In this document: positions 1 through 57,404 of the stretch, piece by piece
How positions within the stretch are numbered: the stretch's first letter is position 1
Layout: the number at the start of each line of letters is the position of its first letter
Sequence record: OV696614
DNA: 64,000 nt
Strand: one strand, 5' to 3'
Source of the DNA: Escherichia phage Cyrano
The notes under the pieces: generated by a model
Told to the model about the DNA's origin: nothing
What the model saw: only the letters and a program-made list of their open reading frames with translations
The model's database searches: none
Position numbers and translations under genes: made by a program

Positions 1-134
1 ATATATACGGAAGCAGGCTTAGTAAGACATGCCCAGACCTAATTAAACACCCCAGAAAACAAGTTGGTTAGAAGATGCAGTAAACAAGTTGTTTTAGAGC
101 GCATGGACGCGCTCTGTGTGTTTTAGAGGGATCT

Positions 135-767
135 ATGACGGTCGAAAAAGACGAGGTAAAAACTCGCCTGACACCAGCGGAGTGGGCCGAAGCTGAAGCC
201 AAATGGACGTCAGGCGAATATACACTCTCAAAGCTGGAGGAAGAGTACGGCATTCGTCGTGAAACACTCTCCAGACATTTCAAAAAGCGAGGATTAGAGA
301 AAGGCGCGGACTCTGTTGGGAAGATGGTTCGTGAGTCTCTTAAATCTGACGCAGAGCTTCGCGCTAAAGCCCGTGCGGAAAAGATAGAAGAACGTCGTAC
401 ACGTTATGACGGCTGGGCGTATGCGTTGGGGCAGATGGTGATGGTCGAAGTCACTACGGCCAAACGTGAGGGTAAGCCTTTAGGGGCGATTGAGGATTCT
501 CTCAAGAGCTTACAGAGAGCCAGTAATACCCTTGCAAAATGCTTTGAAGTTTCGTCCAAAGCATTGGGCATGGATCATGCGGAAAATGACGAGGAAGAAA
601 TTCCGAACCTGGTATTTGGTGAGCTTACGCCTTCCCAGGTGGCGAAATTACGTCAGGAAGACGACGAGCCTGAAATCATCGATGACGAATTGCTTGAGAC
701 GTTGGAAGAAGAAGCTCTAAGCGAATTTGATGCGACAGATGATGGAAGTGAAGGGGAGGACGAATAA
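135..767 (+). CDS. putative terminase small subunit
   Basis: 210 aa; HTH-like N-terminal region, acidic C-terminus; stop overlaps start of the large terminase gene (ATAATGG); position immediately upstream of terminase large subunit. Confidence 0.5.
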   Translation: MTVEKDEVKTRLTPAEWAEAEAKWTSGEYTLSKLEEEYGIRRETLSRHFKKRGLEKGADSVGKMVRESLKSDAELRAKARAEKIEERRTRYDGWAYALGQMVMVEVTTAKREGKPLGAIEDSLKSLQRASNTLAKCFEVSSKALGMDHAENDEEEIPNLVFGELTPSQVAKLRQEDDEPEIIDDELLETLEEEALSEFDATDDGSEGEDE

Positions 768-2023
768 TGGCAATCCCGTCCTCGCTCAGTCTTGTGCAAC
801 TGCATTCTGGACAGATGAAAGTCTTCCAGTCTCCGCATCGATTTAAAGTTGTTTGTGCTGGTCGACGCTGGGGAAAATCCCGGTTGTCGATCTCCACTAT
901 TATTCGTGCGGCGGCAAAGGAAAAAAAGCAAAGGGTCTGGTATGTCGCTCCTACTTACCAGATGGCTCGCCAGATTTTGTGGGACGATCTACAGGAAGTT
1001 CTGCCTCGTAAGTGGGTTAGGAAAAAGAACGACACCACGATGACAATCGTGTTGAAGAACGGTTCGGAGATCGCCCTCAAAGGTGCTGATAAGCCTGACA
1101 CTCTGCGCGGCGTAGCGTTGCATTTTGTAGTGCTTGATGAATTTCAAGATATGAAGGCTGACACCTGGTACAAGGTGTTACGACCTACTCTTTCATCGAC
1201 ACGCGGCGGTGCACTGATCATTGGTACGCCAAAAGGCTTCTCGGAATTTCACAAACTGTGGACTATAGGCCAGAACGTAGAGCTGCAAAGAAAGGGACAG
1301 TGGAAGAGCTGGCAGTTTGTAACTGCCGATTCTCCGTTTGTACCTACGGCGGAAATTGAAGCTGCTAAGAACGATATGGACCCGAAATCGTTCGCTCAGG
1401 AGTACCTGGCGAGCTTTGAGAACATGTCCGGGCGCGTTTACTACCCGTTCGATCGTAACGTGCATGTAAAACCGCTTCAGTTCAACCCTCGGTTGCCTAT
1501 ATGGGTAGGGCAGGACTTCAACATTGACCCGATGTCTTCAGTAATTTTGCAACCTCAGCCAAATGGTGAGCTATGGGCAATTGATGAATTGGTGCTCTTT
1601 TCCTCTAACACGGCAGAGGTTTGTGATGAGCTTGAGAGACGCTTCTGGCGCTGGAAATCACAGATAACGGTATTTCCAGATCCGGCAGGTGCTTATCGCC
1701 AACATGCTCGCGGGGAGTCTGACGTCGACATATTCAAAGAGAAGGGATTCTTACGTGTCGATTATTCGAAAAAGCACCCGCCAATTGCGGATCGTGTTAA
1801 TGCTGTTAACCGAATGCTGATGACCGCATCTGGAGATATCCGGCTGTATATCGATCCGAAGTGCAAGCATTTGATTGATTCACTGGAAAAAGTCATCTAC
1901 AAGCCTGGAACACGAGATATGGATAAGACAGGTGGCATTGAGCATAGTGCAGACGCATTGGGCTATCCAGTACATCGTAGGTATCCAGTCAAAAACCGTG
2001 TTATTCTTGGTGGTTCTCGATAG
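767..2023 (+). CDS. terminase large subunit
   Basis: 418 aa; Walker A-like VVCAGRRWGKS and Walker B-like VVLDEFQD; followed by portal gene. Confidence 0.75.
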   Translation: MAIPSSLSLVQLHSGQMKVFQSPHRFKVVCAGRRWGKSRLSISTIIRAAAKEKKQRVWYVAPTYQMARQILWDDLQEVLPRKWVRKKNDTTMTIVLKNGSEIALKGADKPDTLRGVALHFVVLDEFQDMKADTWYKVLRPTLSSTRGGALIIGTPKGFSEFHKLWTIGQNVELQRKGQWKSWQFVTADSPFVPTAEIEAAKNDMDPKSFAQEYLASFENMSGRVYYPFDRNVHVKPLQFNPRLPIWVGQDFNIDPMSSVILQPQPNGELWAIDELVLFSSNTAEVCDELERRFWRWKSQITVFPDPAGAYRQHARGESDVDIFKEKGFLRVDYSKKHPPIADRVNAVNRMLMTASGDIRLYIDPKCKHLIDSLEKVIYKPGTRDMDKTGGIEHSADALGYPVHRRYPVKNRVILGGSR

Positions 2024-2049
2024 GTAAGTAACTATCTAAGGTTATTCAA

Positions 2050-3624
2050 ATGGAATTGAACGACAAACAAATTAAGGATCTGGTGGCGCGACGCCACCCG
2101 GAATACGAAAAGAAAAAAGAACATTGGGACTTCCTCGCCAGCACTTACGCTGGCGGGCGTGGTTGGTTTACAGACAATATCTTTCGTTACTTTAAAGAGG
2201 GAGATCAGGAGTTTAAGGAGCGAGTTGAACGTGCTTATCGCTTCAACCACACTCGTGAGGTGGTAAACCTCATCAACAAATATCTCTTTAAAGAAGACAT
2301 TCATAGAAATATCGAAGAGGCACCAGAGCAGATCCGCAATTTCTGGAAACGTGCGACTCGCCAGAATGCCTCTATTGACTCATTTATGGCCGCTATTGAT
2401 TTGCAGTCGTCTATTTACGGTCGCATATGGGTTGTTGTCGATAGCACGATGAGTGGTGATGTTGAGTCAGTAGCTGACGAGAAAAAGAAAGATGCTCGCG
2501 CCTACGCCTACTGGATTTCACCTCAGCAAATGCTGGATGTGGCATGGGACGACGACGGGAATATGTTGTGGGCGTTAATTGTGGAAGTCGCTCGTGATGA
2601 CGCAGATCCTTTTACTTCTACAGGTCAGGAATACCAACGTTATCGTCTGTGGACACAAAACGAGTGGTATCTGTTCCGTGAGGAAGTGAAGAAGGGCGCT
2701 GGTGGAGCAGGTCGCCGTCAGGCAAAAGTTATTTTAGAGGATAGCGGTGAGCATAATCTCGGCGTAGTTCCTGTGTTTCCTGTTGATTGTATTGGAGAAA
2801 GTGAATCACCGTATTTCAGCCCATCGTTGATCGATGATATCGCTTATCTTGATCGTGCGGTTGCAAACTATCTGTCAAACCTTGATGCCATTATTCAGGA
2901 TCAGACATTTAGCCAGTTGGCTATACCGGTACAGTCGCTTTTACCTGGTGATGAAAACCACACTAAAGTGCTTGAAATGGGCACAAAGCGAGTCTTCACC
3001 TACGATTCTGAAGGTGGAAACCAGCCGTTTTATCTGTCACCAGACCCGAAACAAGCTCAGATGATCATCACTACGATTAAGACGGTGATTAACGAAATCT
3101 ACCATTCAGTTGGTGTAGCTGGTGAGCGAACGAAGCAGGACAACGCACAGGGAATCGATAATTCATCTGGTGCCGCAAAAATGTATGACTTCCAGCGTGT
3201 AAATAGCTTGCTTGTCACAAAAGCAGAGCGTCTGGAAAGGGCTGAACGCCAAATCATGCTACTGGTTGCGAAATGGATGGGGGTAGATCTGGACGAAGAC
3301 CACTCTTTAATTGCATATCCAGAAAGTTTCGATATTCGTGGCCTTACTGATGAATTTTCTGTTGCCGAGAAACTGTCATTACTTCAGGCACCGGACTCTG
3401 TACGTCGTCACCAGATGGAAATGCTTATTGAGAAGATTTTCCCGAACATTACTGAGGCGATGAAAAAGGAATTTGATAAAGATCTCTTGAATTTTCCTCC
3501 AAAAAATGATCTAAATACCCTTGAAAATAAGTCAGTACTTACTTATGATCGTGGTGCAGCCCAAGAAAGCGGGCAAGATCAACCCCGAGGGAATGGGGAC
3601 TCATCTACTCAAGAGAACGAGTGA
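2050..3624 (+). CDS. putative portal protein
   Basis: 524 aa, size and position between terminase and scaffold/capsid genes; RBS AAGG before ATG. Confidence 0.55.
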   Translation: MELNDKQIKDLVARRHPEYEKKKEHWDFLASTYAGGRGWFTDNIFRYFKEGDQEFKERVERAYRFNHTREVVNLINKYLFKEDIHRNIEEAPEQIRNFWKRATRQNASIDSFMAAIDLQSSIYGRIWVVVDSTMSGDVESVADEKKKDARAYAYWISPQQMLDVAWDDDGNMLWALIVEVARDDADPFTSTGQEYQRYRLWTQNEWYLFREEVKKGAGGAGRRQAKVILEDSGEHNLGVVPVFPVDCIGESESPYFSPSLIDDIAYLDRAVANYLSNLDAIIQDQTFSQLAIPVQSLLPGDENHTKVLEMGTKRVFTYDSEGGNQPFYLSPDPKQAQMIITTIKTVINEIYHSVGVAGERTKQDNAQGIDNSSGAAKMYDFQRVNSLLVTKAERLERAERQIMLLVAKWMGVDLDEDHSLIAYPESFDIRGLTDEFSVAEKLSLLQAPDSVRRHQMEMLIEKIFPNITEAMKKEFDKDLLNFPPKNDLNTLENKSVLTYDRGAAQESGQDQPRGNGDSSTQENE

Positions 3625-3645
3625 TAAGTAACAAAAGGAATTTTT

Positions 3646-4533
3646 ATGAATCTGTGGCAAATGCTTTTGGCCCGTCGTGGTCTGATGGATGTCGCTGAAG
3701 CGCATGAGCGTGGAGGCGCTGGCGGTGTAGCTGCTGATAATGAGCAGAGTACACAAGATCCTGACAAACAGGGTGAACAAAAAGAGCAGCCGAAGGGCGA
3801 TGACGAATACGCTGGCATGACTCAGGAAGAGTTACTGGCCGAACTTCGTAAAACCAAGAAAGCTGGTGCTGAACTGCTGAAGGAGAACATGAAGCGCAAA
3901 GAGAAAGAGCGCACATTGGCCGATCAGCTTGCTCAGTACGGTGATATCGATCCGGCTCGTGCTCGCCAGCTTTTAGAAGCTGAACAGGCCGCAGAAAACG
4001 CACGTCGTGAGGCGGAGCAAGCTGAACTGGAGCGTCGTGGTGAGTTCGATGCTGTTAAAAAACAGATGATCGAAGCACACCAGGCAGAGCTGGCACAGCG
4101 TGACGAACGTTATGCAGCACTGGAAAGTGAAAACGCATCACTGAAATCTCAATTAGTCGAGATGACCGTGGGCGCTTCCTTCAGTAACTCTCTCTTCCTA
4201 CGTGACAAAGTTCTGATGACCCCGGCAAAAGCCCGCGTGATCTACGGTTCTCATTTTGAAGTGGGTGAAGACGGTAGCGTAGTGGGTTATGACAAACCGG
4301 CAGGTCACAAAGAACGAGCTGTTCTGGTTGACGGTGAAGGTAAGCCGTTGCCGTTTGAATCCGCGATTGAACGCATTGTGCGGGCAGATCCGGAAGCTGA
4401 CGCATTGATGCGTAGCGAAGCCAAGCAGGGTGTAGGCTCACATTCCAAATCGACCTACACAATATCCCAACCGAAGAACAAGTCGACTATGGATAAGTTG
4501 GCCTCCGGTCTGGGGAAAATTGGACTTAAGTAA
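3646..4533 (+). CDS. putative scaffolding protein
   Basis: 295 aa, highly charged, long predicted coiled-coil (EQAAENARREAEQAELERR), located directly upstream of capsid gene. Confidence 0.5.
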   Translation: MNLWQMLLARRGLMDVAEAHERGGAGGVAADNEQSTQDPDKQGEQKEQPKGDDEYAGMTQEELLAELRKTKKAGAELLKENMKRKEKERTLADQLAQYGDIDPARARQLLEAEQAAENARREAEQAELERRGEFDAVKKQMIEAHQAELAQRDERYAALESENASLKSQLVEMTVGASFSNSLFLRDKVLMTPAKARVIYGSHFEVGEDGSVVGYDKPAGHKERAVLVDGEGKPLPFESAIERIVRADPEADALMRSEAKQGVGSHSKSTYTISQPKNKSTMDKLASGLGKIGLK

Positions 4534-4558
4534 CATCTAAATCAAAGGGAATTGATAG

Positions 4559-5434
4559 ATGCCATTACTGCGTGAAGAAGCTGAAAAGCTGTCTAACAAC
4601 GAACTTGAACAGGGTGTGATCGAAACTATCATCGATCGCGATGACCTGTTTGCCATCCTGCCTTTTATGAAAATTAATTCAAAGGCATATCTGTACAACC
4701 GTGAAAAAACGCTGAGTGAAGCTACCTTCATCGACGTTAACGACACCATCCCTGAAGGTGCAGCAACCTTCGAAGAATGCGTTGCGAAACTGCGTATTCT
4801 GGCTGGTGACGTAGACGTTGATAAATTCCTGGCGACCACTATGGCCGACACCAACAACCAGTTGGCTATTCAGGTTCGTCAGAAAGTTAAAGGTCTGGCT
4901 CGTGCGTTCCGTCGCAACCTGATTTTGGGTGACTCCAGCTCCAACAACAAGGCGTTTGACGGCATTCCACGCCTGATGCACGCAGATCAGAAGATCGATA
5001 TCGCCGGTGCATCTATGACTTTCTCTATGTTCGACGAACTGGTCGATGCGGTGAAAGATCTTGGTGCTGACTGCATCATGATGCGTTCAGAGCACCTGCG
5101 TGCTTACCGTGCGCTGCTGCGTACAGTAAACGTAGGTCCGTCTGAAATCATGATGGAGAACTTCGGTCGTCCGATGCTGTGTCATAACGGCGTTCCGTTC
5201 ATCATCAACGACTTCATCCCGACCGATTCTGGCAAAGCAAGCATCTACTGCCTGCATCTGTCAGAAGAGAACGGCGTTACTGGTCTGTATGGCGGCGACA
5301 ACGCAGGTATCGTTGTTGAAAACATTGGTACTGTACAGAACAAAGACGCAGTACGTACCCGTGTGAAGTGGTACTGCTCTCTGGCGAATAAGCACGATAA
5401 GGCTATCGCTGCACTGACCAATGTAAAAATTTAA
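4559..5434 (+). CDS. putative major capsid protein
   Basis: 291 aa; position after scaffold; followed by strong hairpin terminator; no signature I can name with certainty. Confidence 0.5.
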   Translation: MPLLREEAEKLSNNELEQGVIETIIDRDDLFAILPFMKINSKAYLYNREKTLSEATFIDVNDTIPEGAATFEECVAKLRILAGDVDVDKFLATTMADTNNQLAIQVRQKVKGLARAFRRNLILGDSSSNNKAFDGIPRLMHADQKIDIAGASMTFSMFDELVDAVKDLGADCIMMRSEHLRAYRALLRTVNVGPSEIMMENFGRPMLCHNGVPFIINDFIPTDSGKASIYCLHLSEENGVTGLYGGDNAGIVVENIGTVQNKDAVRTRVKWYCSLANKHDKAIAALTNVKI

Positions 5435-39020: not shown

Positions 39021-39095
39021 GATGGTGTAGCTCAGTGGTAGAGCAGTTGGCTGTTAACCAACTGGTCGGTGGTTCGAATCCACCCACCATCGCCA
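39021..39095 (+). tRNA. tRNA-Asn (anticodon GTT)
   Basis: manual fold: acceptor GATGGTG/CACCATC, D-arm GCTC..GAGC, anticodon loop CTGTTAA, T-arm GGTGG-TTCGAAT-CCACC, 3' GCCA. Confidence 0.85.
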
Positions 39096-39097
39096 AT

Positions 39098-39173
39098 GCC
39101 GGTTTAGCTCAGTTGGTAGAGCACCTGCCTTGTAAGCAGGATGTCAGCGGTTCGAATCCGTTAACCGGCACCA
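39098..39173 (+). tRNA. tRNA-Thr (anticodon TGT)
   Basis: manual fold: acceptor GCCGGTT/AACCGGC, anticodon stem CCTGC/GCAGG with loop CTTGTAA, T-loop TTCGAAT, 3' ACCA. Confidence 0.85.
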
Positions 39174-39181
39174 ACACAATT

Positions 39182-39268
39182 GGAGAGTAGAGAGCATGGT
39201 GCTCAAGCGGTCTTGAAAACCGTCCCATTGCGCAAGCGATGATGGTTCGATTCCATTACTCTCCGCCA
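39182..39268 (+). tRNA. tRNA-Ser (anticodon TGA), long variable arm
   Basis: 87 nt; acceptor GGAGAGT/ACTCTCC, anticodon loop CTTGAAA, long extra arm, T-loop TTCGATT, 3' GCCA. Confidence 0.8.
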
Positions 39269-42825: not shown

Positions 42826-43038
42826 ATGAACACCACTATTTCCAGCCTAATCGCTCTTGAGATCGGACACGTACAGAAATTAGTTGATGAGTGTGTAGCT
42901 GACATCCTCACCGATCTACCGAATGAGCAGATTCAGGTTGGTGTGAATGACACAACTGGATTTATATTCGAACTTAACAACAAACGCTTCACGCTTCTCA
43001 ATACCGGCTCCGGGTCTTTAGCCGTCAGAATCTGTTAA
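42826..43038 (+). CDS. hypothetical small protein
   Basis: 70 aa ORF followed by CTGCGCGAA..TTCGCGCAG hairpin. Confidence 0.3.
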   Translation: MNTTISSLIALEIGHVQKLVDECVADILTDLPNEQIQVGVNDTTGFIFELNNKRFTLLNTGSGSLAVRIC

Positions 43039-43136: not shown

Positions 43137-45245
43137 ATGTCTAAAAAACGTTCCATCAAAGAGGTTCAGGACTTCCGTGACAGTGTAAAACGAGTAGTCG
43201 CTCTCCTTTCAGGTAAAAACATCCCTGTTGCAGAACGAGGGGACGACGCTTATGTACGCTATAACGATGATGGAGAGCCAATTCTCGTAAACATCCCATC
43301 AATCCCGGATAACGCAACACCGGCATTGATGAATGCTGTGCGCGGATTTCTCGATCATGAGGTTGCTCACATTTTGTTTACCGATATTCGTGTGTCCAAC
43401 AAAATGAGAGAAAAAGGACGCGTTCCTTCCTGGTCGCTATGGAATGCCTTAGAAGACGTGTTCATCGAGCGAAAAATGGGTCAGGTCTTTAACGGAACAA
43501 GACGTAATCTGATGGCAACTCAGCGCCTTATTATCGAAAAAGTCTTTAAACCAAAGGCTTCAGAGGCTATTGCTTATTGTGGCAAAGATCAGCGCGCGCT
43601 TTTTCTAAACTTCTTTCTCTGTCCGGTTGTAAGAGCCTGGGATGGCCAAGCACCGTTCGTAGATTTCATGGATGAATATTGGCCTGTCATTGAGAAACCA
43701 ATTTCATTATTAAAAGAACATGGTATCGATGTGGCCGTGCGTAACATGTCTTGCACCGAGGATTGTGTAAAGGTGGCTGCGACCATAGCTAAGATCCTCA
43801 AAGACACTGAAAGTGAAAGCAACGGTAAGGAGTCAGCTCCGGGAAAAACTTCCGATCCTTCAGACGCTGACCAGACGGATGCCTCTGGAGAAAACAATGA
43901 AGATAACGAAGATCATGAGACACCCTCAGCGTTAGATAATCACAAATCTATCAAATCAGAATCACACAATAAGCACAAACATGATAATAATGACAGTGAT
44001 GATTTAGATAATTCTGAATCATCAGAAACAATATTCGATGATACAGAAAATGATAAAGAGGTATCAGATTCTGATGCTTCTGATAACGCGGCGTCAGAAT
44101 CATTAACCGCTGACCACGAAAAAAGAAAAACGACAGAAGACGGCTCTTCAGATATTCCAACTCCGTCAAAAATGAGTCTGGAAGAGGCTTTAGAGGAGCT
44201 GGATAGCATAGAAGATGAAGTCGGAGGCATGACAGAAGATGCTCTATCCGAAACGATTAAAAGCGAGTTAACAGAAAGCTCGAAAAGCGAATACAGGCCA
44301 TACAATCGCTCATACGACTTCATCGGCTCGATTGATCAGGCAGAAGCCCATATCAAACGGCTTATTAAAACATTCTCCGATATTGATTTAGGAGGATGTC
44401 CAATCAGCCGCTATCGCATCGTTCCTGAAGGCAACCAGCTCTTCGACAAATATATTGAAAAGCATCTTTCGTCAGGTGTTTCGTCGACGCTGGCAAAAGA
44501 CCTGGAGCGAGCAATAGCAAGCAGAAACAGAGTTCAGTTTATACCGGGCCAGCGTCGGGGGCGCATTCATGGTTCTAGTATCTACAGATTAGCAATGAAT
44601 GATGATCGCGTGTTTCGTAAAAAAGAAGAATCTAAAGCCGTTAACGCCTGTGTTCAACAAGTGATTGATTTATCAGGTTCAATGAGGGGTATAACGATAC
44701 AATTGGCTCTTGCAAGTGCATATACCATCGCCGATGCCCTTGATCGAATAAATGTTCCCAACATTATCACCGGCTTCACTACATTTGGTAGTCATATGGC
44801 GGCAGGAGAACTTAAGGCTGTCAAGTATGAGTTCTCTCGCTTTGAATCTTTAATGCTACCTATCATCAAAAATTGGAATGAAAAGGTAAATTCTCGCGAA
44901 GTTCGCTCACGTATGGGGTGCGTAGGCTACACATTCCCACTTCTTAATAACGTGGATGGTGAAAGCATAGCCAGCCTTGCATCGTTATTTTCCGGTCGCA
45001 TGGAGGACAGGAAGATCATGCTTGTTCTGAGCGATGGCGAGCCGTGGGCTGTTGGGAGAGGTTTTGACGCTCATTTGCGTTCGGTTGCGAAGCAAATTGA
45101 AACGCAGACTGACATTGATTTGATGGCAATTGGCATCATGACTGACGCACCGGAGAGATTTTACTCAAATCATGCCCTGGTAACGAGCGTTGATAGTCTT
45201 GGTTCATCTGTAGTTACTGAACTATCTCGTATCATTTTAAAGTGA
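43137..45245 (+). CDS. vWA-domain protein, CobT-like, with acidic low-complexity linker
   Basis: 702 aa; C-terminal von Willebrand A domain with MIDAS motif DLSGSM; central Asp/Glu/Ser-rich segment; paired with AAA+ gene downstream. Confidence 0.7.
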   Translation: MSKKRSIKEVQDFRDSVKRVVALLSGKNIPVAERGDDAYVRYNDDGEPILVNIPSIPDNATPALMNAVRGFLDHEVAHILFTDIRVSNKMREKGRVPSWSLWNALEDVFIERKMGQVFNGTRRNLMATQRLIIEKVFKPKASEAIAYCGKDQRALFLNFFLCPVVRAWDGQAPFVDFMDEYWPVIEKPISLLKEHGIDVAVRNMSCTEDCVKVAATIAKILKDTESESNGKESAPGKTSDPSDADQTDASGENNEDNEDHETPSALDNHKSIKSESHNKHKHDNNDSDDLDNSESSETIFDDTENDKEVSDSDASDNAASESLTADHEKRKTTEDGSSDIPTPSKMSLEEALEELDSIEDEVGGMTEDALSETIKSELTESSKSEYRPYNRSYDFIGSIDQAEAHIKRLIKTFSDIDLGGCPISRYRIVPEGNQLFDKYIEKHLSSGVSSTLAKDLERAIASRNRVQFIPGQRRGRIHGSSIYRLAMNDDRVFRKKEESKAVNACVQQVIDLSGSMRGITIQLALASAYTIADALDRINVPNIITGFTTFGSHMAAGELKAVKYEFSRFESLMLPIIKNWNEKVNSREVRSRMGCVGYTFPLLNNVDGESIASLASLFSGRMEDRKIMLVLSDGEPWAVGRGFDAHLRSVAKQIETQTDIDLMAIGIMTDAPERFYSNHALVTSVDSLGSSVVTELSRIILK

Positions 45246-45340
45246 ACAAAACAGCCTTAACGATAAGTAACCACTTACGATAGATAATGATATATTTATA
45301 TAAGAAGTTGAACGCTCATTAGAAAACAAAGGAAAAACGC

Positions 45341-46576
45341 ATGACTACTACTGCACTGCAAAATGAAAAAAATCCTTCTGATTACCTTGTTTGCAAGTGG
45401 TGCGGAAAATCATTTCACTATTTTAAGTCCCATGTAGCCAATGGTAATTGCGAGGGCATTCCTGAGTCAGTAAAAGATGCCGATCCTGACACCGTACTGA
45501 AAATGTACACAACACAGTTTCCAGATGAGCCAACGCTATCGAAAAAGGCACTTGATGCAATTCAAGCTAAACGTGCCGAGCAAAAAAGCGAAATGGCCAA
45601 ATCATCTGGCGTGACCAGTAGCCCAGGCTACACAGGCACAGTTGAGTACAAGACAGATCTGGTCGCAGCTCACGAACTGCTAAATGTAACGGTGAAAGAA
45701 CTCGGAACAAAACGTGGGACGCCGCTCATGGTTAGCGTCAACGTCAATACGCCGTTTCCAGAGTTCGTTCCAGAAGTGAAGAAGGGCTACGTATATGGCG
45801 ACTTCGAACTGATCAAAGACATTTTCATGATGCTTGAACTTGGCATACCTGGCTATTTGTGGGGTCATGCAGGAACAGGCAAATCGTCATTGCCTACACA
45901 ACTATGTGCTTTGCTCAATCGTCCGTTGATCCGTGCCCAACATACAGCATCAATGGAAGAGGCACATGTTACGGGGCAAATTCTGGCGCGTGATGGCTCT
46001 ACGTATTTCGAGCCTGGCTTGCTTGCGCTCGCAATGAAGCATGGCTGGGTTTACCTCGCGGATGAATACGACTTTGCGTTTCCACAGATTCTTGGCGTGT
46101 ATCAGCCAGTGCTGGAAGGTGAAGCGTTGGTCATCAAAGAGGCGACTCCAGAATGGCGTCGCATTACTCCGCATGAACGGTTTGCTTTCATTGGCACTGG
46201 CAACACGAACGGATCTGGTGATGAAACCGGCTTGTACCAGGGTACAAACATCCAGAACGCCGCGAACTTTTCGCGTTTTGGCATCGTTTCGAATGTGAAA
46301 TACATGAGCAAAGAGGCAGAGATCAACATGTTGATAAATGCCGGTATCGTGGATGAATACGCAGAAAAGATGGTTAAGTTTGCCGGTATCGTTCGCGATG
46401 GATACGAAGAACACCTTATCAGTCAGCCAATTGGCCCTCGTGAACTTTTGTTGTCGGCCAAGATTGGAATGATGCGAGGCGACTTTGTGACAGGTATTGA
46501 GCGTTCTTTCATTAACAAACTCCCTTCAGCTTCTGCACAAGCGGCTCGTGAAGTTGTTCAAAAAATATTTGGTTGA
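45341..46576 (+). CDS. AAA+ ATPase, MoxR/CobS-like
   Basis: 411 aa; Walker A GHAGTGKSS, Walker B VYLADEYD; immediately downstream of vWA gene. Confidence 0.7.
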   Translation: MTTTALQNEKNPSDYLVCKWCGKSFHYFKSHVANGNCEGIPESVKDADPDTVLKMYTTQFPDEPTLSKKALDAIQAKRAEQKSEMAKSSGVTSSPGYTGTVEYKTDLVAAHELLNVTVKELGTKRGTPLMVSVNVNTPFPEFVPEVKKGYVYGDFELIKDIFMMLELGIPGYLWGHAGTGKSSLPTQLCALLNRPLIRAQHTASMEEAHVTGQILARDGSTYFEPGLLALAMKHGWVYLADEYDFAFPQILGVYQPVLEGEALVIKEATPEWRRITPHERFAFIGTGNTNGSGDETGLYQGTNIQNAANFSRFGIVSNVKYMSKEAEINMLINAGIVDEYAEKMVKFAGIVRDGYEEHLISQPIGPRELLLSAKIGMMRGDFVTGIERSFINKLPSASAQAAREVVQKIFG

Positions 46577-46782
46577 TCGTGCGTAAAGGATGTTTCGGCT
46601 CTCTTATCGCTGCTTCTGAAACTGGTAAGGCTTGTCTGGTATGTCCAGACAAGCCCGATTGTCACCAATCAGCAAAAGAAGTTGCGATTTCGATGTATGG
46701 GAAGTTCGTAGGCTTCCCCAATGACAAAATCAAAAAAACCATAAAGGTAAAAACACATGAAAGCACTGATGGTTCGAACTGA
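46573..46782 (+). CDS. possible small Cys-rich protein
   Basis: 69 aa, CLVCPDKPDC motif, non-ATG start, overlaps dnaE start; weak. Confidence 0.2.
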   Translation: MIVRKGCFGSLIAASETGKACLVCPDKPDCHQSAKEVAISMYGKFVGFPNDKIKKTIKVKTHESTDGSN

Positions 46783-49700
46783 CTTCTCACTTGGGGAGTC
46801 GGCTCTAAAAGCAGAAAACGCGGTGAAGATTGCCAGAGAAGCTGGCTACACCGCTGTAATTTCAGCAGATAGCATGAATATTGCGAGTGTTATTCCACTA
46901 CAACGTGCCGCTGGTGACGACATGGCGGTTATTTGTGGTGTGAAACTAAATATCGTTGATGATCCCACATACGAGCACCGGGCTAAACTTGCTAAAGAAT
47001 CTATGAGATGTATGGAATCATTAGAGCGGGGACGTAACTACTCGTTTACCGCTCTAATTAAAAATGAGCAAGGATATCGCGACATCTGCGAACTAATGAC
47101 GGCGGCCAACACACGAGAACAGTTCTACTTTGTACCGCGTCTCTCGCTCGAACAGTTGGTTTCTACATATGCCAAAGGCAACATCATCCTGCTTACTTCC
47201 GACATCGGTAGCGTGTTCCAACGCAACGATTTTGCAAAAATCATAAGCACACTGATTACAGCGGGTGGAAAAGACAACTTCTATAGTGTGGTTTATCCGC
47301 ACCCTACCCCATTCTACGACCAGATTAACGTCCGGGCGATGAAAGTCGCCAGCGCATTGAAAATAGAGCCAGTGGCGTTCTATCCCGCTTATTACGAATC
47401 GATCGACGATGCAGACATTAAAGACATTGCGCACATGGTTACGAACAACATCAAAATCGACCAGCCGCATCGTCTGCGTATCCCCCACCAGCGAGATAAC
47501 GCCATCAATGGTCGTCGCCATCTCCTTGAGGCGCTTAAAGCCTTCTCCGTTCGCATGGATGTGCCGGTAACAGCTGCAATGGCCTCAACAACGCAGGACT
47601 CCATTATCGATGCCTGCACATGGCGCTGGCATGAATTGCCACCAGCACTGCCCAAGATGGCAGACGACGAACCTGCAACGCTGATGAAACTGGCTGTTGC
47701 AGGGCTGCGTAAACGTCTTACCACAAAAGAGTTTGGATACACACCACCTGCTTCTGAGAACAGGGTTTATGTTGAGCGGCTAAAGTACGAAATGGACACG
47801 CTGACTCGCCTGGGATTCTGTGGTTACTTCCTGATGGTACGCGATCTGATGAATCACAGCCGTGAAACTGGCATTCCTGTCGGGCCTGGTCGTGGTTCCT
47901 CTGCCGGTTCTCTGGTGGCGTGGTGCATAGGCATAACCAACGTCGACCCAATCCGTCACGGTCTTCTGTTTGAGCGTTTCATCAACCCTGAGCGTCTCGA
48001 CTTGCCGGATGCGGACTTGGACTTCAGCCAGGCACGTCGCCATGAGGTGATCGAGTATCTGAATGAACGCTACGGCGAAGATTACGTTGCAGGCATTCCG
48101 AACTTCACCTATCTGGGCGCGGCATCTGCACTACGTGACACCGCTCGTATTTATGGTGTGGAGTCCGCAGATATGGCGGTATCAAAAGAACTGAAGAACG
48201 TCGAGGATGATAGCCTTCCATTGGAAGAGCTGCGCGAACAACTGGCAAGTCTCGACAAATACGCAACAAAATATCCTGATGCATTCAATGCAGCCTGCAA
48301 GTTACAAAGCCTTATGCGTGGCTTTGGTAGACATGCGGCAGGGATGATCGTAGCAGGTGTTCCTCTGACAGAACGTACACCGGTTGAGCGCCGTGGTGAC
48401 GCGCGTTGTATCGCATTTGACAAGCGTTACTGCGAGGCTATGGGCCTAATTAAGCTGGACGTGCTTGGCCTGGCAACTCTCGATTTGCTCGATAGTGCAA
48501 AACGCTACATCAAAGAGAGTACCGGGGAAGACATCAATCTCGACGCTATCCCACTGGACGATCGCAAGGTTCTGGATGGGTTCGCTGCAGGGTACACGCA
48601 GGGCGTATTCCAGCTGGAGTCCGGCCCCATGCGTAAGTTGCTTAAAGATCTGGGCGGTGGCATCGAGCCAATGAGCTTCAAGACCGTTGTCGCCACGACC
48701 GCACTCTTCCGACCAGGCCCGATCCAATCCGGCATGTTGGACGACTATGTCTCCGTGGCCAAAGGCTTCATGGCTCCACATTCAATTCATCCGCGTCTTG
48801 AGGAAGTCACCCGGGAGACTAATGGTGTTTTGCTCTATCAGGAACAAATCATGCAAAGTTCCCGAGTACTTGCCGGGTTCTCTATGGCCGAAGCAGACGC
48901 TCTGCGTTCCGCTATCGGTAAAAAGAACATGGATAAGATGAAAGCGATCGGCAGCGATTTTGTAGAACGAGCACAAGCAGGCTGGGTGACACTGTCACTC
49001 AAAAATGGAGGTACTGTAGAGGTTCACAAACACGCAAAACTGGATTGCTCAGACGGTAAGCGTAGAAGCTACAGCGAGGCTATTAGTGACGGCATAGACT
49101 ACGTGGAGATCGTCTCTGAACAAGAAGGTCTCAGTAAGGAAAAAGCCCAAGAAATATGGGACGCCTTTGAGAAGTTCGGTGGATATGCCTTCAACAAATC
49201 ACACAGTGTTGCTTATTCTTTAATCAGTTATCAGTCTATGTGGCTAAAGACGCACTACCCTGCTGAGTTCTTCGCAGCTGCGCTCACCATTCTGGGCGAG
49301 GATAAGCATCAGGGGCTGGTGAAGGATGCGCTGACCTATGGCATTCGCGTATTGCCACCAGACGTTAATGTGTCATCTAACCGAATTGAGATCCGCACAC
49401 TCGAAGACGGCAGTCAGGCACTGTATGCGCCATTCTCTGCTGTGAAAGGCTGTTCTGAAAATGGTTGTCAGGCAATTATGCGTGCGCGTGAGAAAGTTGG
49501 TGGCAAATTCGAGTCAGTGGCACAATTCGATGAAGCGGTCGAGAAGCGTGCATGTAACAGTCGTGTACGCGAGTCGCTTCATAAAGTAGGGGCTTTTGCG
49601 TCAATTGAGCCAGGCAGTCTGCCAGCAACTGATCCTGAACGACTGCGCGACCAGGCTGAGCTGATGGGCAATCTCATCATTGACGCTGTTAAAGCATCAC

Positions 49701-50263
49701 GTCCGTTCGAAATGAATCCTAAGCGTTCTGCCGAAATCAACGTACTCATGACACGTATGGCGGCTGAAATGGGCTTGGGTGAGGAGTTGATACGCCCGAC
49801 TATTGGTATTAAACCCAAAATCATGATCATTCTGGACAATGCGAACGGCAATGACGCTCGTACCGGCTACTTCATGGAGAACGGATACGACGACTTTAAG
49901 GCAAAACTACTGACAGTTGGAGATCTGCGCATGGGCGATCTTTATGTCACGGGTGTTTGTAAGAAGGTTAAGGACAAAGAGAAAGACTATACCAAAGACG
50001 AGATAGGCCAGTTCACAGACTTTATGCGGGAAGAAATTAATCTTGTACGACCAACCTACATTTTGACGTGTGGTAGTCGTTCAACCGCACTATTTAACAA
50101 TAAGAGTAAACCATCAGATCTGATTGGTCGTAAGGAGTACTTCCCAGAGCTTGATGCAACCGTCTTCTACGGATTTAACCCGAATATCCTGTACTTCCGA
50201 CCGGAAGAAGGAGAGCGACTGGAGGCCATTCTGGCTGATATCGCGGAGACAATAAATAAGTAA
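46757..50263 (+). CDS. dnaE: DNA polymerase III alpha subunit (DnaE-type)
   Basis: 1168 aa; N-terminal PHP-like region, polymerase core (GRGSSAGSLVAWCIGIT, palm acidic motifs), typical length. Confidence 0.85.
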   Translation: MKALMVRTDFSLGESALKAENAVKIAREAGYTAVISADSMNIASVIPLQRAAGDDMAVICGVKLNIVDDPTYEHRAKLAKESMRCMESLERGRNYSFTALIKNEQGYRDICELMTAANTREQFYFVPRLSLEQLVSTYAKGNIILLTSDIGSVFQRNDFAKIISTLITAGGKDNFYSVVYPHPTPFYDQINVRAMKVASALKIEPVAFYPAYYESIDDADIKDIAHMVTNNIKIDQPHRLRIPHQRDNAINGRRHLLEALKAFSVRMDVPVTAAMASTTQDSIIDACTWRWHELPPALPKMADDEPATLMKLAVAGLRKRLTTKEFGYTPPASENRVYVERLKYEMDTLTRLGFCGYFLMVRDLMNHSRETGIPVGPGRGSSAGSLVAWCIGITNVDPIRHGLLFERFINPERLDLPDADLDFSQARRHEVIEYLNERYGEDYVAGIPNFTYLGAASALRDTARIYGVESADMAVSKELKNVEDDSLPLEELREQLASLDKYATKYPDAFNAACKLQSLMRGFGRHAAGMIVAGVPLTERTPVERRGDARCIAFDKRYCEAMGLIKLDVLGLATLDLLDSAKRYIKESTGEDINLDAIPLDDRKVLDGFAAGYTQGVFQLESGPMRKLLKDLGGGIEPMSFKTVVATTALFRPGPIQSGMLDDYVSVAKGFMAPHSIHPRLEEVTRETNGVLLYQEQIMQSSRVLAGFSMAEADALRSAIGKKNMDKMKAIGSDFVERAQAGWVTLSLKNGGTVEVHKHAKLDCSDGKRRSYSEAISDGIDYVEIVSEQEGLSKEKAQEIWDAFEKFGGYAFNKSHSVAYSLISYQSMWLKTHYPAEFFAAALTILGEDKHQGLVKDALTYGIRVLPPDVNVSSNRIEIRTLEDGSQALYAPFSAVKGCSENGCQAIMRAREKVGGKFESVAQFDEAVEKRACNSRVRESLHKVGAFASIEPGSLPATDPERLRDQAELMGNLIIDAVKASRPFEMNPKRSAEINVLMTRMAAEMGLGEELIRPTIGIKPKIMIILDNANGNDARTGYFMENGYDDFKAKLLTVGDLRMGDLYVTGVCKKVKDKEKDYTKDEIGQFTDFMREEINLVRPTYILTCGSRSTALFNNKSKPSDLIGRKEYFPELDATVFYGFNPNILYFRPEEGERLEAILADIAETINK

Positions 50264-50267
50264 TAAA

Positions 50268-50291
50268 GAAAACCCGCCTGTTGGCGGGTTT
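50268..50291 (+). terminator. rho-independent terminator after dnaE
   Basis: AAAACCCGCC-tgtt-GGCGGGTTT followed by ATAAAG. Confidence 0.65.
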
Positions 50292-55064: not shown

Positions 55065-57404
55065 ATGGCAAAAGGAAAATCCGCACTGGCACTTGCTCTG
55101 AAAAAGAAAATCGGTAGCAACGACGAAATTCAGAAAGTAACTCATTGGATTGACACAGGCTTTCCTCCGTTAAACAAAGCTATTTCCGGTCGTTACGATG
55201 GCGGTTTCCCATGTGGTCGTATCGTAGAAGTATTCGGGCCACCAAGCGCGGGGAAATGTGTTACCGCAGACACCATGCTGCTGACGGAGCGTGGAATGGT
55301 AACAGTGAAAGAACTGTTTGAGATTGAGGGGCACAAAGCAACATGCACTACTCGCGATGTAGAGCATAACGTTGGACTCATCAATGAAAATGGCGTGATA
55401 GAGAAGACCTCACACCTGACATGGAACAACCGTCGCAAATTCAAGCGTATTAAGCTGGCATCAGGCGGTTATATCGAGGCTACGTTCCGTCACCCAATCC
55501 GTGTGGTTGACGACTTAGGTAATGTCGTCTGGCGACATGCTGAAAAAATCAGTGTAGGCGACACGATTCCTTCAATGGTTGGCACACATCAATTCGGCGA
55601 TCAGCACCTGGATGCCAATATCGCAAAACTGATGGGCTATTTAATTGCTGACGGATACGTGGCCTCTGAAAATTCAGTGAATTTTTCTAACACAGATCCT
55701 TTCATCAAGGATGAGTACTACCGCCTCATTTCGCTGGTATCAGACAAGATGCCAGTTACGAGAAAACATAACGGCTCGGAAGACCATGTGCTGTTTAGCA
55801 AAGAGGTGCGTTCGCTGCTTTTTAAAGAGTATGGTCTGGAGTATGAGAAAGCTGCTGGCAAGCAGGTTCCGTTGAGTGTGCGTCGCGCCAATAGCGAGGC
55901 TCAAATTGCATTCCTTCGCGGCTACTTTGAGCTGGAATGCCACGTCAATGATGGTCGCTGCATTGAGGTTGTGAGCGCGAGTGGGCTGCTGCTACAGCAA
56001 ATTCGCCTCATGCTCCTGAATCTGGGGATTACGTCAACTATCTCTGAAAAACACGTCGCGGGTTATGAAAATACATATTACCGGCTGTCATTCAGTGGCT
56101 CTAATTACGACCTTTTTCTGTCAACGATTGGTTTCGAATCTCCGGCACGTTTATCAGTGGCAACCAAACGGGACATTGGTTTTGACCGCACTTACTCAGG
56201 CTATGTTCCGCACATCAGCGGCTTAGTGAAATCACTCTACGAGTCGCTCACCAAGACCACCCGTGAAGACTACGCTCTGGTAGACCACGTTATTGGCCGC
56301 GGCGATCGTGTCGGAATAGACAAACTGCGAGAAATCTATGTCTCCTTCATTGGCAGAAAGAATCGTTTTAACGAGCATCTGTTTGCACAACTGGCAGCGG
56401 TAATTGGCTCTAACTTGTTCTACGACGAAGTCGTGGCTATTGAGGAAGGTGAAGCACCAACGTTCGACGTAGCGATGCCGGAAACACACTCTTTCTGGTC
56501 TAACGGGATTATCAGCCACAACACATTCCTTGCAACAGCAGCGATGATCTCCGCTCAAAAACAAGATGGTCTGGCGGTATTCCTCGATCATGAAAACAGT
56601 TTTGACGTTGGCCTGGCTGTAGCCAATGGCCTGAACGCAGATGAGGATGACGGTCAGTGGGTATACAAGCAGCCAGATACCTTCGAAGACTCTGTAGAGT
56701 TGATCGGCACAATACTTAAATTGGTTCGTGATGAAGAGCTTATCCCCGAATCAGCACCTATCTGTATCGTGGCTGACTCTCTTGCGTCTATGGTTCCGAA
56801 CTCCAAAGCCGAGAAGTTCGAAAAGATGGCTGAAGGCACTGCCAAAGACAAAGATCAGCTAAACATGAACGACAATACGGCACTGGCTCGTGCGACGAGT
56901 GCGAACTTCCCTACTCTGGCTTTGTGGGCACGCAAATACAACGCCTGCATCATCTTCTTGAATCAGGTTCGCACAAAAATCGGTGTAATGTTTGGCGACC
57001 CTACTACGTCGCCAGGTGGAGATTCACCGAAGTTTTACGCTTCTGTGCGCATCCGTCTCGGTGCATCGGTGATGAAGGATGGGAAAGAGAAGATCGGCCA
57101 GGACGTAGGCGCAGAATGCATCAAAAACAAAGTTGCACCACCGTATGGCAAATGCACCTGGAAATTCTACTTCGATCCTACTCGTGGCCTCGACGTTATC
57201 GAGTCGCTCGTCGAGTACATGCTGGAAGAAGGATACCTGCCAAAGAACGCCAGCGGGCGAGTTGAAATTGGTGACAAGAAATACACCAAATCGCAGATCG
57301 TCGACATGTATCGGGAGAAGCCATTAGCAGAAATCATTGCTGCGTTACAGGCGATAGATGACCGACGAGAGAAGACATCACCAACAGAAGAACTAGAAGA
57401 TTAA
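55065..57404 (+). CDS. recA: RecA-family recombinase precursor interrupted by an intein
   Basis: exteins: GRIVEVFGPPSAGK / TFLATAAMISAQKQDGLAVFLDHENSFD ... KFYASVRIRLG match RecA/UvsX core; 422 aa insert between P-loop Lys and Thr. Confidence 0.85.
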   Translation: MAKGKSALALALKKKIGSNDEIQKVTHWIDTGFPPLNKAISGRYDGGFPCGRIVEVFGPPSAGKCVTADTMLLTERGMVTVKELFEIEGHKATCTTRDVEHNVGLINENGVIEKTSHLTWNNRRKFKRIKLASGGYIEATFRHPIRVVDDLGNVVWRHAEKISVGDTIPSMVGTHQFGDQHLDANIAKLMGYLIADGYVASENSVNFSNTDPFIKDEYYRLISLVSDKMPVTRKHNGSEDHVLFSKEVRSLLFKEYGLEYEKAAGKQVPLSVRRANSEAQIAFLRGYFELECHVNDGRCIEVVSASGLLLQQIRLMLLNLGITSTISEKHVAGYENTYYRLSFSGSNYDLFLSTIGFESPARLSVATKRDIGFDRTYSGYVPHISGLVKSLYESLTKTTREDYALVDHVIGRGDRVGIDKLREIYVSFIGRKNRFNEHLFAQLAAVIGSNLFYDEVVAIEEGEAPTFDVAMPETHSFWSNGIISHNTFLATAAMISAQKQDGLAVFLDHENSFDVGLAVANGLNADEDDGQWVYKQPDTFEDSVELIGTILKLVRDEELIPESAPICIVADSLASMVPNSKAEKFEKMAEGTAKDKDQLNMNDNTALARATSANFPTLALWARKYNACIIFLNQVRTKIGVMFGDPTTSPGGDSPKFYASVRIRLGASVMKDGKEKIGQDVGAECIKNKVAPPYGKCTWKFYFDPTRGLDVIESLVEYMLEEGYLPKNASGRVEIGDKKYTKSQIVDMYREKPLAEIIAALQAIDDRREKTSPTEELED
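55257..56522 (+). mobile_element. intein with LAGLIDADG homing endonuclease domain inside recA P-loop
   Basis: begins with Cys (GK|CVTADT), ends His-Asn followed by Thr (ISHN|TF); internal LMGYLIADGYV and FLRGYFELECHV blocks. Confidence 0.75.

Follow-up and report, generated by a model that had tools for sequence, protein, structure and literature searches.

Here, we describe two adjacent genes in a 64,000-nucleotide stretch of Escherichia phage Cyrano (sequence record OV696614; this whole stretch is referred to below as the window), which is an SSU5-type phage-plasmid of Escherichia coli. The genes encode a CobT-like protein and a CobS-like ATPase, a pair of the kind usually annotated as belonging to cobalamin biosynthesis. 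We find that the pair is almost certainly not a cobalt chelatase, and we tentatively propose that it is an early protein remodeller or protease tied to lytic replication set-up or host takeover. Its features are as follows (aa, amino acids; MIDAS, metal-ion-dependent adhesion site; pLDDT, predicted local distance difference test):

43137-45245, + strand: CobT-like protein, 702 aa (Pfam CobT and CobT_C; phrog_1576, E 4e-300)
43137-43841, + strand: N-domain of the CobT-like protein, residues 1-235, with zincin-like topology
43356-43370, + strand: HEVAH motif (H74, E75, H78), putative zinc-binding catalytic site
43443-43478, + strand: NALEDVFIERKM motif, residues 103-114, in which E106 and E111 are candidates for the third metal ligand (gluzincin type)
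43842-44156, + strand: acidic Ser/Asp/Glu-rich linker, residues 236-340, predicted to be disordered from low pLDDT
44667-45044, + strand: MIDAS metal site of the vWA domain (D511-x-S513-x-S515, T548/T549, D633)
45341-46576, + strand: CobS-like MoxR-clade AAA+ ATPase, 411 aa (Pfam AAA_5, PF07728, E 2e-15; phrog_249, E 2e-106)
45341-45760, + strand: N-terminal extension of the ATPase, not present in cellular CobS
45392-45433, + strand: C-x2-C-x4-H-x4-H knuckle in the extension
45506-45541, + strand: Y-x3-[YF]-P-x-x-P-x-L-S motif in the extension
45863-46450, + strand: catalytic AAA+ motif region of the ATPase
45863-45889, + strand: Walker A, GHAGTGKSS, residues 175-183
46049-46072, + strand: Walker B, VYLADEYD, residues 237-244
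46193-46213, + strand: sensor 1
46265-46282, + strand: Arg finger
46433-46450, + strand: sensor 2

A preliminary description of the window, made from the nucleotide letters alone, had given both open reading frames (ORFs) the same coordinates and lengths, and the signatures it named (DLSGSM, GHAGTGKSS, VYLADEYD and the acidic linker) are all located in the pair. Its further claim of a CobT/CobS-like arrangement, in which a MoxR-clade AAA+ ATPase accompanies a vWA/MIDAS protein, agrees with Pfam, PHROG and PDB matches alike. It did not mention that the pair is a widespread viral one, that the CobT-like protein has an HExxH zincin motif, or that the ATPase has an extra Cys/His domain.

The CobT-like protein matches Pfam CobT over residues 9-294 (E 6e-27) and CobT_C, the vWA domain, over residues 492-701 (E 3e-82), and it is laid out as a zincin-like N-domain, an acidic disordered linker, a middle domain and a C-terminal vWA/MIDAS domain, which holds DLSGSM as residues 511-516 and aligns to the vWA domain of the solved CobT. 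The linker is 31% Asp/Glu and 25% Ser/Thr, and it is predicted to be disordered, with a pLDDT below 50 over residues 250-330. For the ATPase, the closest solved proteins are CobS (2e-25), followed by Midasin (E 1e-11), CbbQ and NorQ, and all five of its catalytic motifs, from Walker A to sensor 2, align with those of genuine CobS. The locus thus has the architecture of a chelatase, with intact AAA+ motifs and a partner carrying an acidic linker and a C-terminal vWA/MIDAS domain, and equally that of a MoxR-clade ATPase with a vWA co-chaperone, an ATPase of the AAA_5/MoxR/chelatase/midasin clade adjoining a vWA/MIDAS gene. With its matches to phrog_1576 and phrog_249, and with an HExxH-vWA protein encoded directly upstream of the ATPase, the pair is the SSU5-type member of the widespread viral 'cobST' family.

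Measured against the equivalog models of the chelatase subunits, whose cutoffs are 759 bits for CobT (TIGR01651) and 558.6 bits for CobS (TIGR01650), the CobT-like protein scores 67.7 bits and the CobS-like ATPase 84.8 bits, some 7- to 11-fold short of passing. With the same tool, genuine CobT from Sinorhizobium (1166 bits) and Sphingomonas (839 bits) and a genuine CobS (651 bits) all pass. The versions from Pseudomonas phage nickie, Rhizobium phage RHph_N1_15, the ICP2-type phage JSF27 and cyanophage P-SSM4 score 67-109 bits, except that the 'peptidase' of P-SSM4 gives no match to the CobT model. PGAP is correspondingly guarded, calling the two products 'CobT-related protein' and 'AAA family ATPase'. 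The order of the genes differs as well: cellular loci run cobS then cobT, and viral loci are reversed, cobT-like then cobS-like, with three very distant loci as exceptions.

The genetic context points the same way. The preliminary description had noted the lack of a large chelatase subunit and of other cob genes, and this stood up to closer inspection. The window's ORFs of at least 450 aa encode a portal, tape measure, tail tip, tail fibre, intein-containing RecA, DnaE and the CobT-like protein, and none of them is of CobN family or size; a complete plasmid of 99.5% identity has no cob or cbi gene among its 137 features, and its ribonucleotide reductase is of class Ia, which is B12-independent. 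E. coli salvages cobinamide and does not synthesise the corrin ring, and the chelatase of Salmonella is the ATP-independent CbiK (PMC8123684). Because E. coli is a salvager only, the host is expected to provide neither a CobN partner nor the substrate for one. The pair therefore fails as a true cobaltochelatase, and it is almost certainly not making vitamin B12 in this element.

What the viral protein has in place of chelatase membership is a putative peptidase site. An exhaustive search of representative proteins with the N-domain alone returned 1,146 clusters at 50% identity, and among the best 150 of these an HExxH motif is present in 129 of the 130 full-length representatives (a word-indexed search with the full protein had returned near-identical SSU5-type sequences for all of its best 120 matches, hence the use of the N-domain to reach diversity). 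In an alignment of 127 sequences, with a mean identity to the window protein of about 30%, D73, H74, E106 and E111 are invariant, as are D511, S513 and S515 of the MIDAS site, and at least 90% of sequences keep E75 and H78, N103, D107 and M114 around the two Glu residues, and the MIDAS residues T548, T549 and D633. The motif reads HEVGH in RHph, HECYH in JSF27 and HEVGH in P-SSM4, where the protein is annotated 'peptidase', and the window protein itself partially matches phrog_459 'peptidase' across the HExxH region. The lengths of the relatives' proteins (649-790 aa) and of their linkers vary. In nickie (L001:6841-8925) the HExxH motif is lost, the sequence there being DSEISK, with the downstream Glu residues and the MIDAS site kept.

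By contrast, the three genuine CobT proteins that we examined read RG-x-x-D-[SA]-x-A-L where the viral proteins have HExxH. Both Glu residues are retained in genuine and solved CobT, as DAVEQARVEA aligned to NALEDVFIERKM. The solved CobT aligns to the profile from position 89 on, and the HExxH position was therefore read from genuine cobT genes on chromids.

AlphaFold2 models have a mean pLDDT of 85 for the full-length CobT-like protein and 91 for the N-domain. The N-domain is modelled as a helix and a three-stranded sheet, followed by the helix with HExxH and, after it, one that bears Glu; H74, E75 and H78 are predicted to lie on helix 62-81 and E106 and E111 on helix 98-117, an arrangement of motifs like that of gluzincins. 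Also named among the closest known systems are the gluzincins M48/M56 (Ste24/ZMPSTE24, BlaR1) and the ArdC protease domain; a Foldseek comparison of the N-domain model with the PDB returned nothing significant. Structurally, the modelled vWA domain comes closest to NorD in the NorQD complex and to the MIDAS domain of Midasin.

The ATPase also departs from its cellular counterparts. Its N-terminus has about 100 residues more than three cellular CobS proteins in alignment, and this extension, with its Cys/His knuckle and its Y-x3-[YF]-P-x-x-P-x-L-S motif, is kept in 21 distant homologues from dnaE-linked loci. The alphaproteobacterial homologues have an Asp in place of the second Cys of the knuckle. 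A relaxed Pfam scan assigned no family to the extension, nor to the small four-cysteine (Cys4) ORF that follows the ATPase gene.

The immediate neighbours of the pair are these:

42826-43038, + strand: 70-aa ORF, first of the + strand gene run (phrog_2627, E 2e-40; a hypothetical protein in the near-identical plasmid)
46573-46782, + strand: 69-aa four-cysteine ORF, GCFG...C-x12-C-x2-C-x5-C (phrog_6337, E 2e-44)
46757-50263, + strand: phage DnaE (Pol III alpha), 1168 aa (Pfam PHP, DNA_pol3_alpha, finger and HHH_6)

The pair had been placed in a DNA-metabolism region immediately upstream of dnaE. The region is as described; 'immediately' is not, since the 69-aa Cys4 ORF intervenes, overlapping both the stop codon of the ATPase gene and the start of dnaE and so bridging the two. 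No terminator-like site was seen on the + strand between the cobT-like gene and dnaE, a hairpin follows dnaE at 50270-50291, and dnaE is probably co-transcribed with the pair.

This arrangement is conserved. In nickie and RHph the genes run as in the window: ligase, cobT-like, cobS-like, small ORF(s), dnaE, exonuclease and recA. A scan of one genome per species, covering 185,579 species, gave 31 loci, many of them on contigs measuring 96-118 kb, with sources that include Yersinia (pMT1), Xenorhabdus, Morganella, Massilia, Roseospira, Paracoccus, Ancylobacter, Faunimonas, Phyllobacterium and Magnetospirillum. The series primase, ligase, cobT-like, cobS-like, Cys4, dnaE and exonuclease is kept wherever the sequence reaches, down to about 30% identity, and spans about 20 genome loci in Alpha-, Beta- and Gammaproteobacteria and one cyanobacterial contig. 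This hints at a very broad lineage of ~110-kb phage-plasmid-like elements beyond the Enterobacteriaceae, sharing the replication module of SSU5, nickie and RHph. A few copies in the scan are chromosomal (Halomonas, Desulfosarcina, Photobacterium). A further scan of viral contigs with the N-domain alignment gave 80 loci, all SSU5-type, and these were excluded from the neighbourhood statistics.

Among phages more widely, a tblastn search of 50,697 genomes located the ATPase in 493, mostly cyanomyoviruses, with the remainder including ICP2-type vibriophages, Rhizobium RHph phages, Pseudomonas phage nickie and the SSU5 group; the pair is found too in elements of the pHCM2/pMT1/SSU5 type. The ICP2-type phage has the pair upstream of a helicase and PolA, and P-SSM4 has it between gp46/47 and gp45/44/62. 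With DnaE, PolA and T4-type contexts all found, the pair accompanies three kinds of replicative polymerase, and in all four phage lineages examined it lies among replication or early genes and outside the structural modules. In cyanophage P-SSM2, cobS is an early-gene marker (PMC6628666). In cyanomyoviruses cobS is a core gene carried in a single copy, at about one per genome whatever the depth (PMC9983427), a pattern that speaks against an environment-dependent metabolic gene.

Selection on the pair was measured against the pMT1 orthologues, for which synonymous sites are saturated, so that divergence is given at non-synonymous sites and not as a ratio of the two rates. It amounts to 0.06-0.25 in the folded domains, with just 0.06 in the catalytic region of the ATPase, and to 0.51 in the linker versus 0.18 in the domains flanking it. 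Purifying selection acts on the folded domains, and the linker varies freely.

We tentatively favour, with a confidence that falls somewhat short of even, the reading that the pair is an early AAA+/MIDAS/zincin protein remodeller or protease, tied to lytic replication set-up or host takeover. In MoxR-vWA systems the vWA domain captures a substrate peptide and the ATPase transmits a conformational change (Kaur et al. 2020; PMC7159879). By analogy with the solved machines CobST, NorQD and CbbQO and with Midasin, we infer a mechanism in which the ATPase would form a ring, the CobT-like protein would dock onto that ring, the MIDAS site would grip an acidic residue of a client protein, and ATP hydrolysis would pull on or remodel the client. 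The client would then probably be cleaved by the HExxH domain, for which the flexible acidic linker would serve as a tether. The pair would be made early, along with the replication genes of the phage (the dnaE operon), and because of this timing its target would most likely be a protein of replication set-up or host takeover. A sharper version of the same idea, which we regard as improbable, makes the pair a dedicated replisome-associated remodeller or protease, a two-chain Midasin-like motor with a zincin head, needed to start phage replication; it might, for example, strip or cut a host replisome or nucleoid protein, or activate the phage polymerase complex.

Likeness to known machines runs in several directions. 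Midasin/Rea1 resembles the pair in its ring of AAA_5 type, in its long linker rich in Asp/Glu and in a MIDAS domain that holds the client for pull-off by the motor, but it is a single giant polypeptide of six fused AAA modules with no peptidase, whereas the phage system is split over two proteins, with a ring presumed to be homo-oligomeric and a head that is zincin-like. NorQ/NorD and CbbQ/CbbO likewise combine a separate MoxR-clade ATPase with a vWA/MIDAS adaptor that remodels a client enzyme; their adaptors have no HExxH, and their clients (nitric oxide reductase and Rubisco) are encoded nearby, with none such evident here. CobS and CobT of the CobNST chelatase (EC 6.6.1.2; PDB 9ujv and 9uka) share the AAA+ module, the fold family of the PF06213 N-domain, the linker, the middle domain and vWA/MIDAS, and differ in lacking HExxH (in the three genuine CobT) and the ATPase extension, in gene order and in having a CobN partner. 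Closest of all are the viral cobS/cobT genes (PHROG 249 with PHROG 1576/459), core genes in T4-like cyanomyoviruses, ICP2, pelagiphages and haloarchaeal tailed viruses, which have the same gene order, the same HExxH N-domain, acidic linker, vWA/MIDAS and AAA_5 ATPase, and the same early/replication placement. Within them the SSU5/nickie/RHph lineage stands apart in the longer ATPase extension with its Cys/His knuckle and in its fixed position next to the Cys4 protein and DnaE, and identity to the cyanophage and ICP2 versions is just ~25-30%.

Several points weigh against the reading that we favour. The loss of HExxH in nickie and in 1 of the 130 representatives means that proteolysis is not indispensable everywhere, and since genuine CobT keeps both Glu residues, the N-domain could do something other than proteolysis. 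The conservation of gene order across one large phage lineage may come from common descent and shared timing and not from a functional link to replication. Our statement that the host has no CobN comes from the literature and not from a search of the host genome. Finally, a literature search turned up no paper that connects CobT with HExxH in phages, and no experimental study of any viral CobS or CobT; the preliminary description had likewise called the role of the pair in a phage-plasmid not established.

What else might the pair do? One option, which we consider unlikely, is that it is a chaperone for metal-centre maturation, opening a client enzyme for the insertion of a metal cofactor as NorQ/NorD, CoxD/CoxE and the chelatases do, with the HExxH site holding or delivering a metal ion and cutting no protein; the PHP domain of the phage DnaE, the adjacent Cys4 protein and the phage NrdB would be candidate clients. 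The structural match of the vWA domain to NorD, those of the ATPase to NorQ and CbbQ, and the service of genuine CobST in metal insertion are all consistent with this, as is the fixed presence, in the dnaE-linked lineage, of a metal-binding-like Cys4 protein and a PHP-domain polymerase. Yet the pair also occurs without DnaE or Cys4, beside PolA in ICP2-type phages and T4-type replication genes in cyanophage, no specific metalloenzyme is linked to it in all lineages, and HExxH together with a Glu is the classical signature of a catalytic peptidase.

The N-terminal part of the Cys4 protein has homologues in the corresponding place in nickie (E 4e-5) and RHph (E 7e-5), and at many genome loci, and it is the sole conserved one of the small ORFs flanking the pair, which otherwise differ between phages: for the 70-aa ORF at 42826-43038, nickie, RHph and JSF27 gave no homologue ahead of the pair, which makes that ORF specific to the SSU5 group. 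The Cys4 protein is not beside cobS in ICP2-type phages or cyanophages and so tracks dnaE and not the pair, and whether it is part of the pair's system is uncertain. Its ORF has no PGAP annotation in the near-identical plasmid. The counterparts in nickie and RHph_N1_15 are about 180 aa long (L001:10312-10854 and L002:10841-11371), and that of RHph comes after the gene for an ECF-type sigma factor; the protein could be anti-sigma-like, or could bind a metal or an Fe-S cluster.

A further alternative is that the pair assembles and proteolytically processes virion proteins. T4-like jumbo phages have a MoxR AAA+ protein and a vWA protein with a fused N-terminal metallopeptidase domain, for which a role in virion assembly was proposed by analogy with p618 and p892 of the Acidianus two-tailed virus (ATV) (Iyer et al. 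2021; PMC7824862). That virus also encodes a MoxR (p618) and vWA (p892) pair, compared here by description only; this pair lacks a peptidase domain and its role is in the development of the tail outside the cell (Iyer et al., PMC7824862). In the window, the head module (1-5434) comprises a TerS-like protein, TerL, a portal, a separate scaffold protein and a major head protein, with no prohead protease recognisable in it, and a protease encoded elsewhere is therefore conceivable. However, the pair keeps to replication and early genes and away from structural modules in every lineage examined, it continues into dnaE here without an intervening terminator-like site, and T4-like cyanophages carry a T4-type prohead protease, gp21, as well. 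The early-marker status of cobS in P-SSM2 (PMC6628666) also argues against a role in assembly, which we judge to be a poor prospect.

We think it very unlikely that the pair is a genuine auxiliary cobaltochelatase, in which viral CobS and CobT would recruit a CobN-type subunit from the host and boost cobalamin for phage nucleotide metabolism. The aerobic pathway does exist in some of the hosts that related phages infect (Rhizobium and Pseudomonas, for example), and the pair shows homology to CobS and CobT. The cobST cluster of viruses is known to be widespread and has been assumed to hijack host CobN, a hypothesis published more than once (PMC8651126; PMC3037004; PMC2984593) and embodied in the standard annotation 'porphyrin/cobalamin biosynthesis'. 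Against it stand the wide miss at both equivalog cutoffs where genuine controls pass, the lack of CobN and the B12-independent reductase of the element, and the absence of corrin-ring synthesis from E. coli together with the use of CbiK by Salmonella (PMC8123684). The viral clade keeps an HExxH that a chelatase does not need, and has a reversed gene order and an extra ATPase domain, while cobS is a depth-invariant core gene (PMC9983427) that was reported not to be found in cyanobacterial hosts (PMC2984593).

Least probable is a defence or conflict system of the vWA-MoxR type, which would shield the lysogen from other phages or mobile elements. The preliminary description had mentioned conflict systems, a suggestion that our results do not support: such systems with peptidase effectors do occur in conflict contexts (PMC7159879) and phage-plasmids do carry defence cargo, but PADLOC gave only a noise-level DrmE match (E 0.0026, in the low-complexity linker) and none for the ATPase, the pair lies in no variable hotspot but among conserved replication genes and is core to the replication modules of strictly lytic phages too (ICP2, cyanomyoviruses), and no third component such as VMAP was seen.

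Turning to the element as a whole, its gene block is 99.5% identical to that of E. coli plasmid pEC7518-111k and about 81% identical to that of Salmonella phage SSU5; the near-identical complete plasmid is 111.7 kb long. The block is carried by 783 PLSDB plasmids from Klebsiella, Escherichia, Enterobacter, Yersinia, Salmonella and others, and the allele occurs in 219 of 5,426 complete E. coli genomes (~4%), being plasmid-borne in all and full length in 215 of the 219 copies. The recorded host of a related phage, PhiR41_1, is E. coli K-12 MG1655. A tRNA cluster (39021-39268, + strand; Asn-GTT, Thr-TGT and Ser-TGA) lies between the tail and replication regions, upstream of Gp49-family and glutaredoxin genes. 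Further along, a 779-aa RecA homologue (55065-57404, + strand) is split by a LAGLIDADG homing-endonuclease intein (Pfam RecA, Intein_splicing and LAGLIDADG_3), and PGAP labels its equivalent as a homing endonuclease only.

The phage DnaE has features of its own. Its C-terminus (residues 1049-1164; 49901-50248) weakly matches family-4 uracil-DNA glycosylases (TIGR00758, E 5e-7; Pfam UDG, E 0.014) and corresponds to the separate PHROG families phrog_13175 and phrog_4335, which suggests, at the level of sequence, a glycosylase-like domain fused to the polymerase. In plasmid NZ_AP027904.1, an otherwise intact 114-kb IncFIB phage-plasmid, IS100 truncates dnaE after about 834 codons (L122:4058-8430), and the phage polymerase is thus dispensable for plasmid maintenance. 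We considered this insertion as evidence on the dispensability of the pair and rejected it, as it hits dnaE and leaves the pair untouched.

The pair itself is already known and very common, and the combination of MoxR with a metallopeptidase-vWA protein has been described before (Iyer et al. 2021). Our findings add a calibrated misfit of the 'cobalamin biosynthesis' label to this element, the HExxH contrast between the viral clade and three genuine CobT, the extra domain of the ATPase, and the depth of the linkage to the replication module. The failed chelatase tests, the retained peptidase motif and the status of an early, single-copy core gene tied to replication modules suggest that, at least where the host of the phage has no CobN, the 'cobalamin' label gives the wrong function. 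This matters because 'cobalamin/porphyrin biosynthesis' is the annotation on thousands of phage, plasmid and metagenome records, and the gene is counted as an auxiliary metabolic gene in ocean viromes.

The true function of these genes has been asked about since the first cyanophage genomes of 2005, and cyanophages do not lend themselves readily to manipulation. The version on the E. coli phage-plasmid offers a genetically tractable system for a direct answer, and nickie, as a natural variant, could reveal whether the pair can do without the peptidase site. Were the pair indeed a replisome-associated remodeller or protease, cellular CobS and CobT would be a derived offshoot of a protease-chaperone family in which HExxH was lost, and the cyanophage cobS, among the most abundant 'auxiliary metabolic genes' of the ocean, would be a mis-named core factor of replication or takeover.

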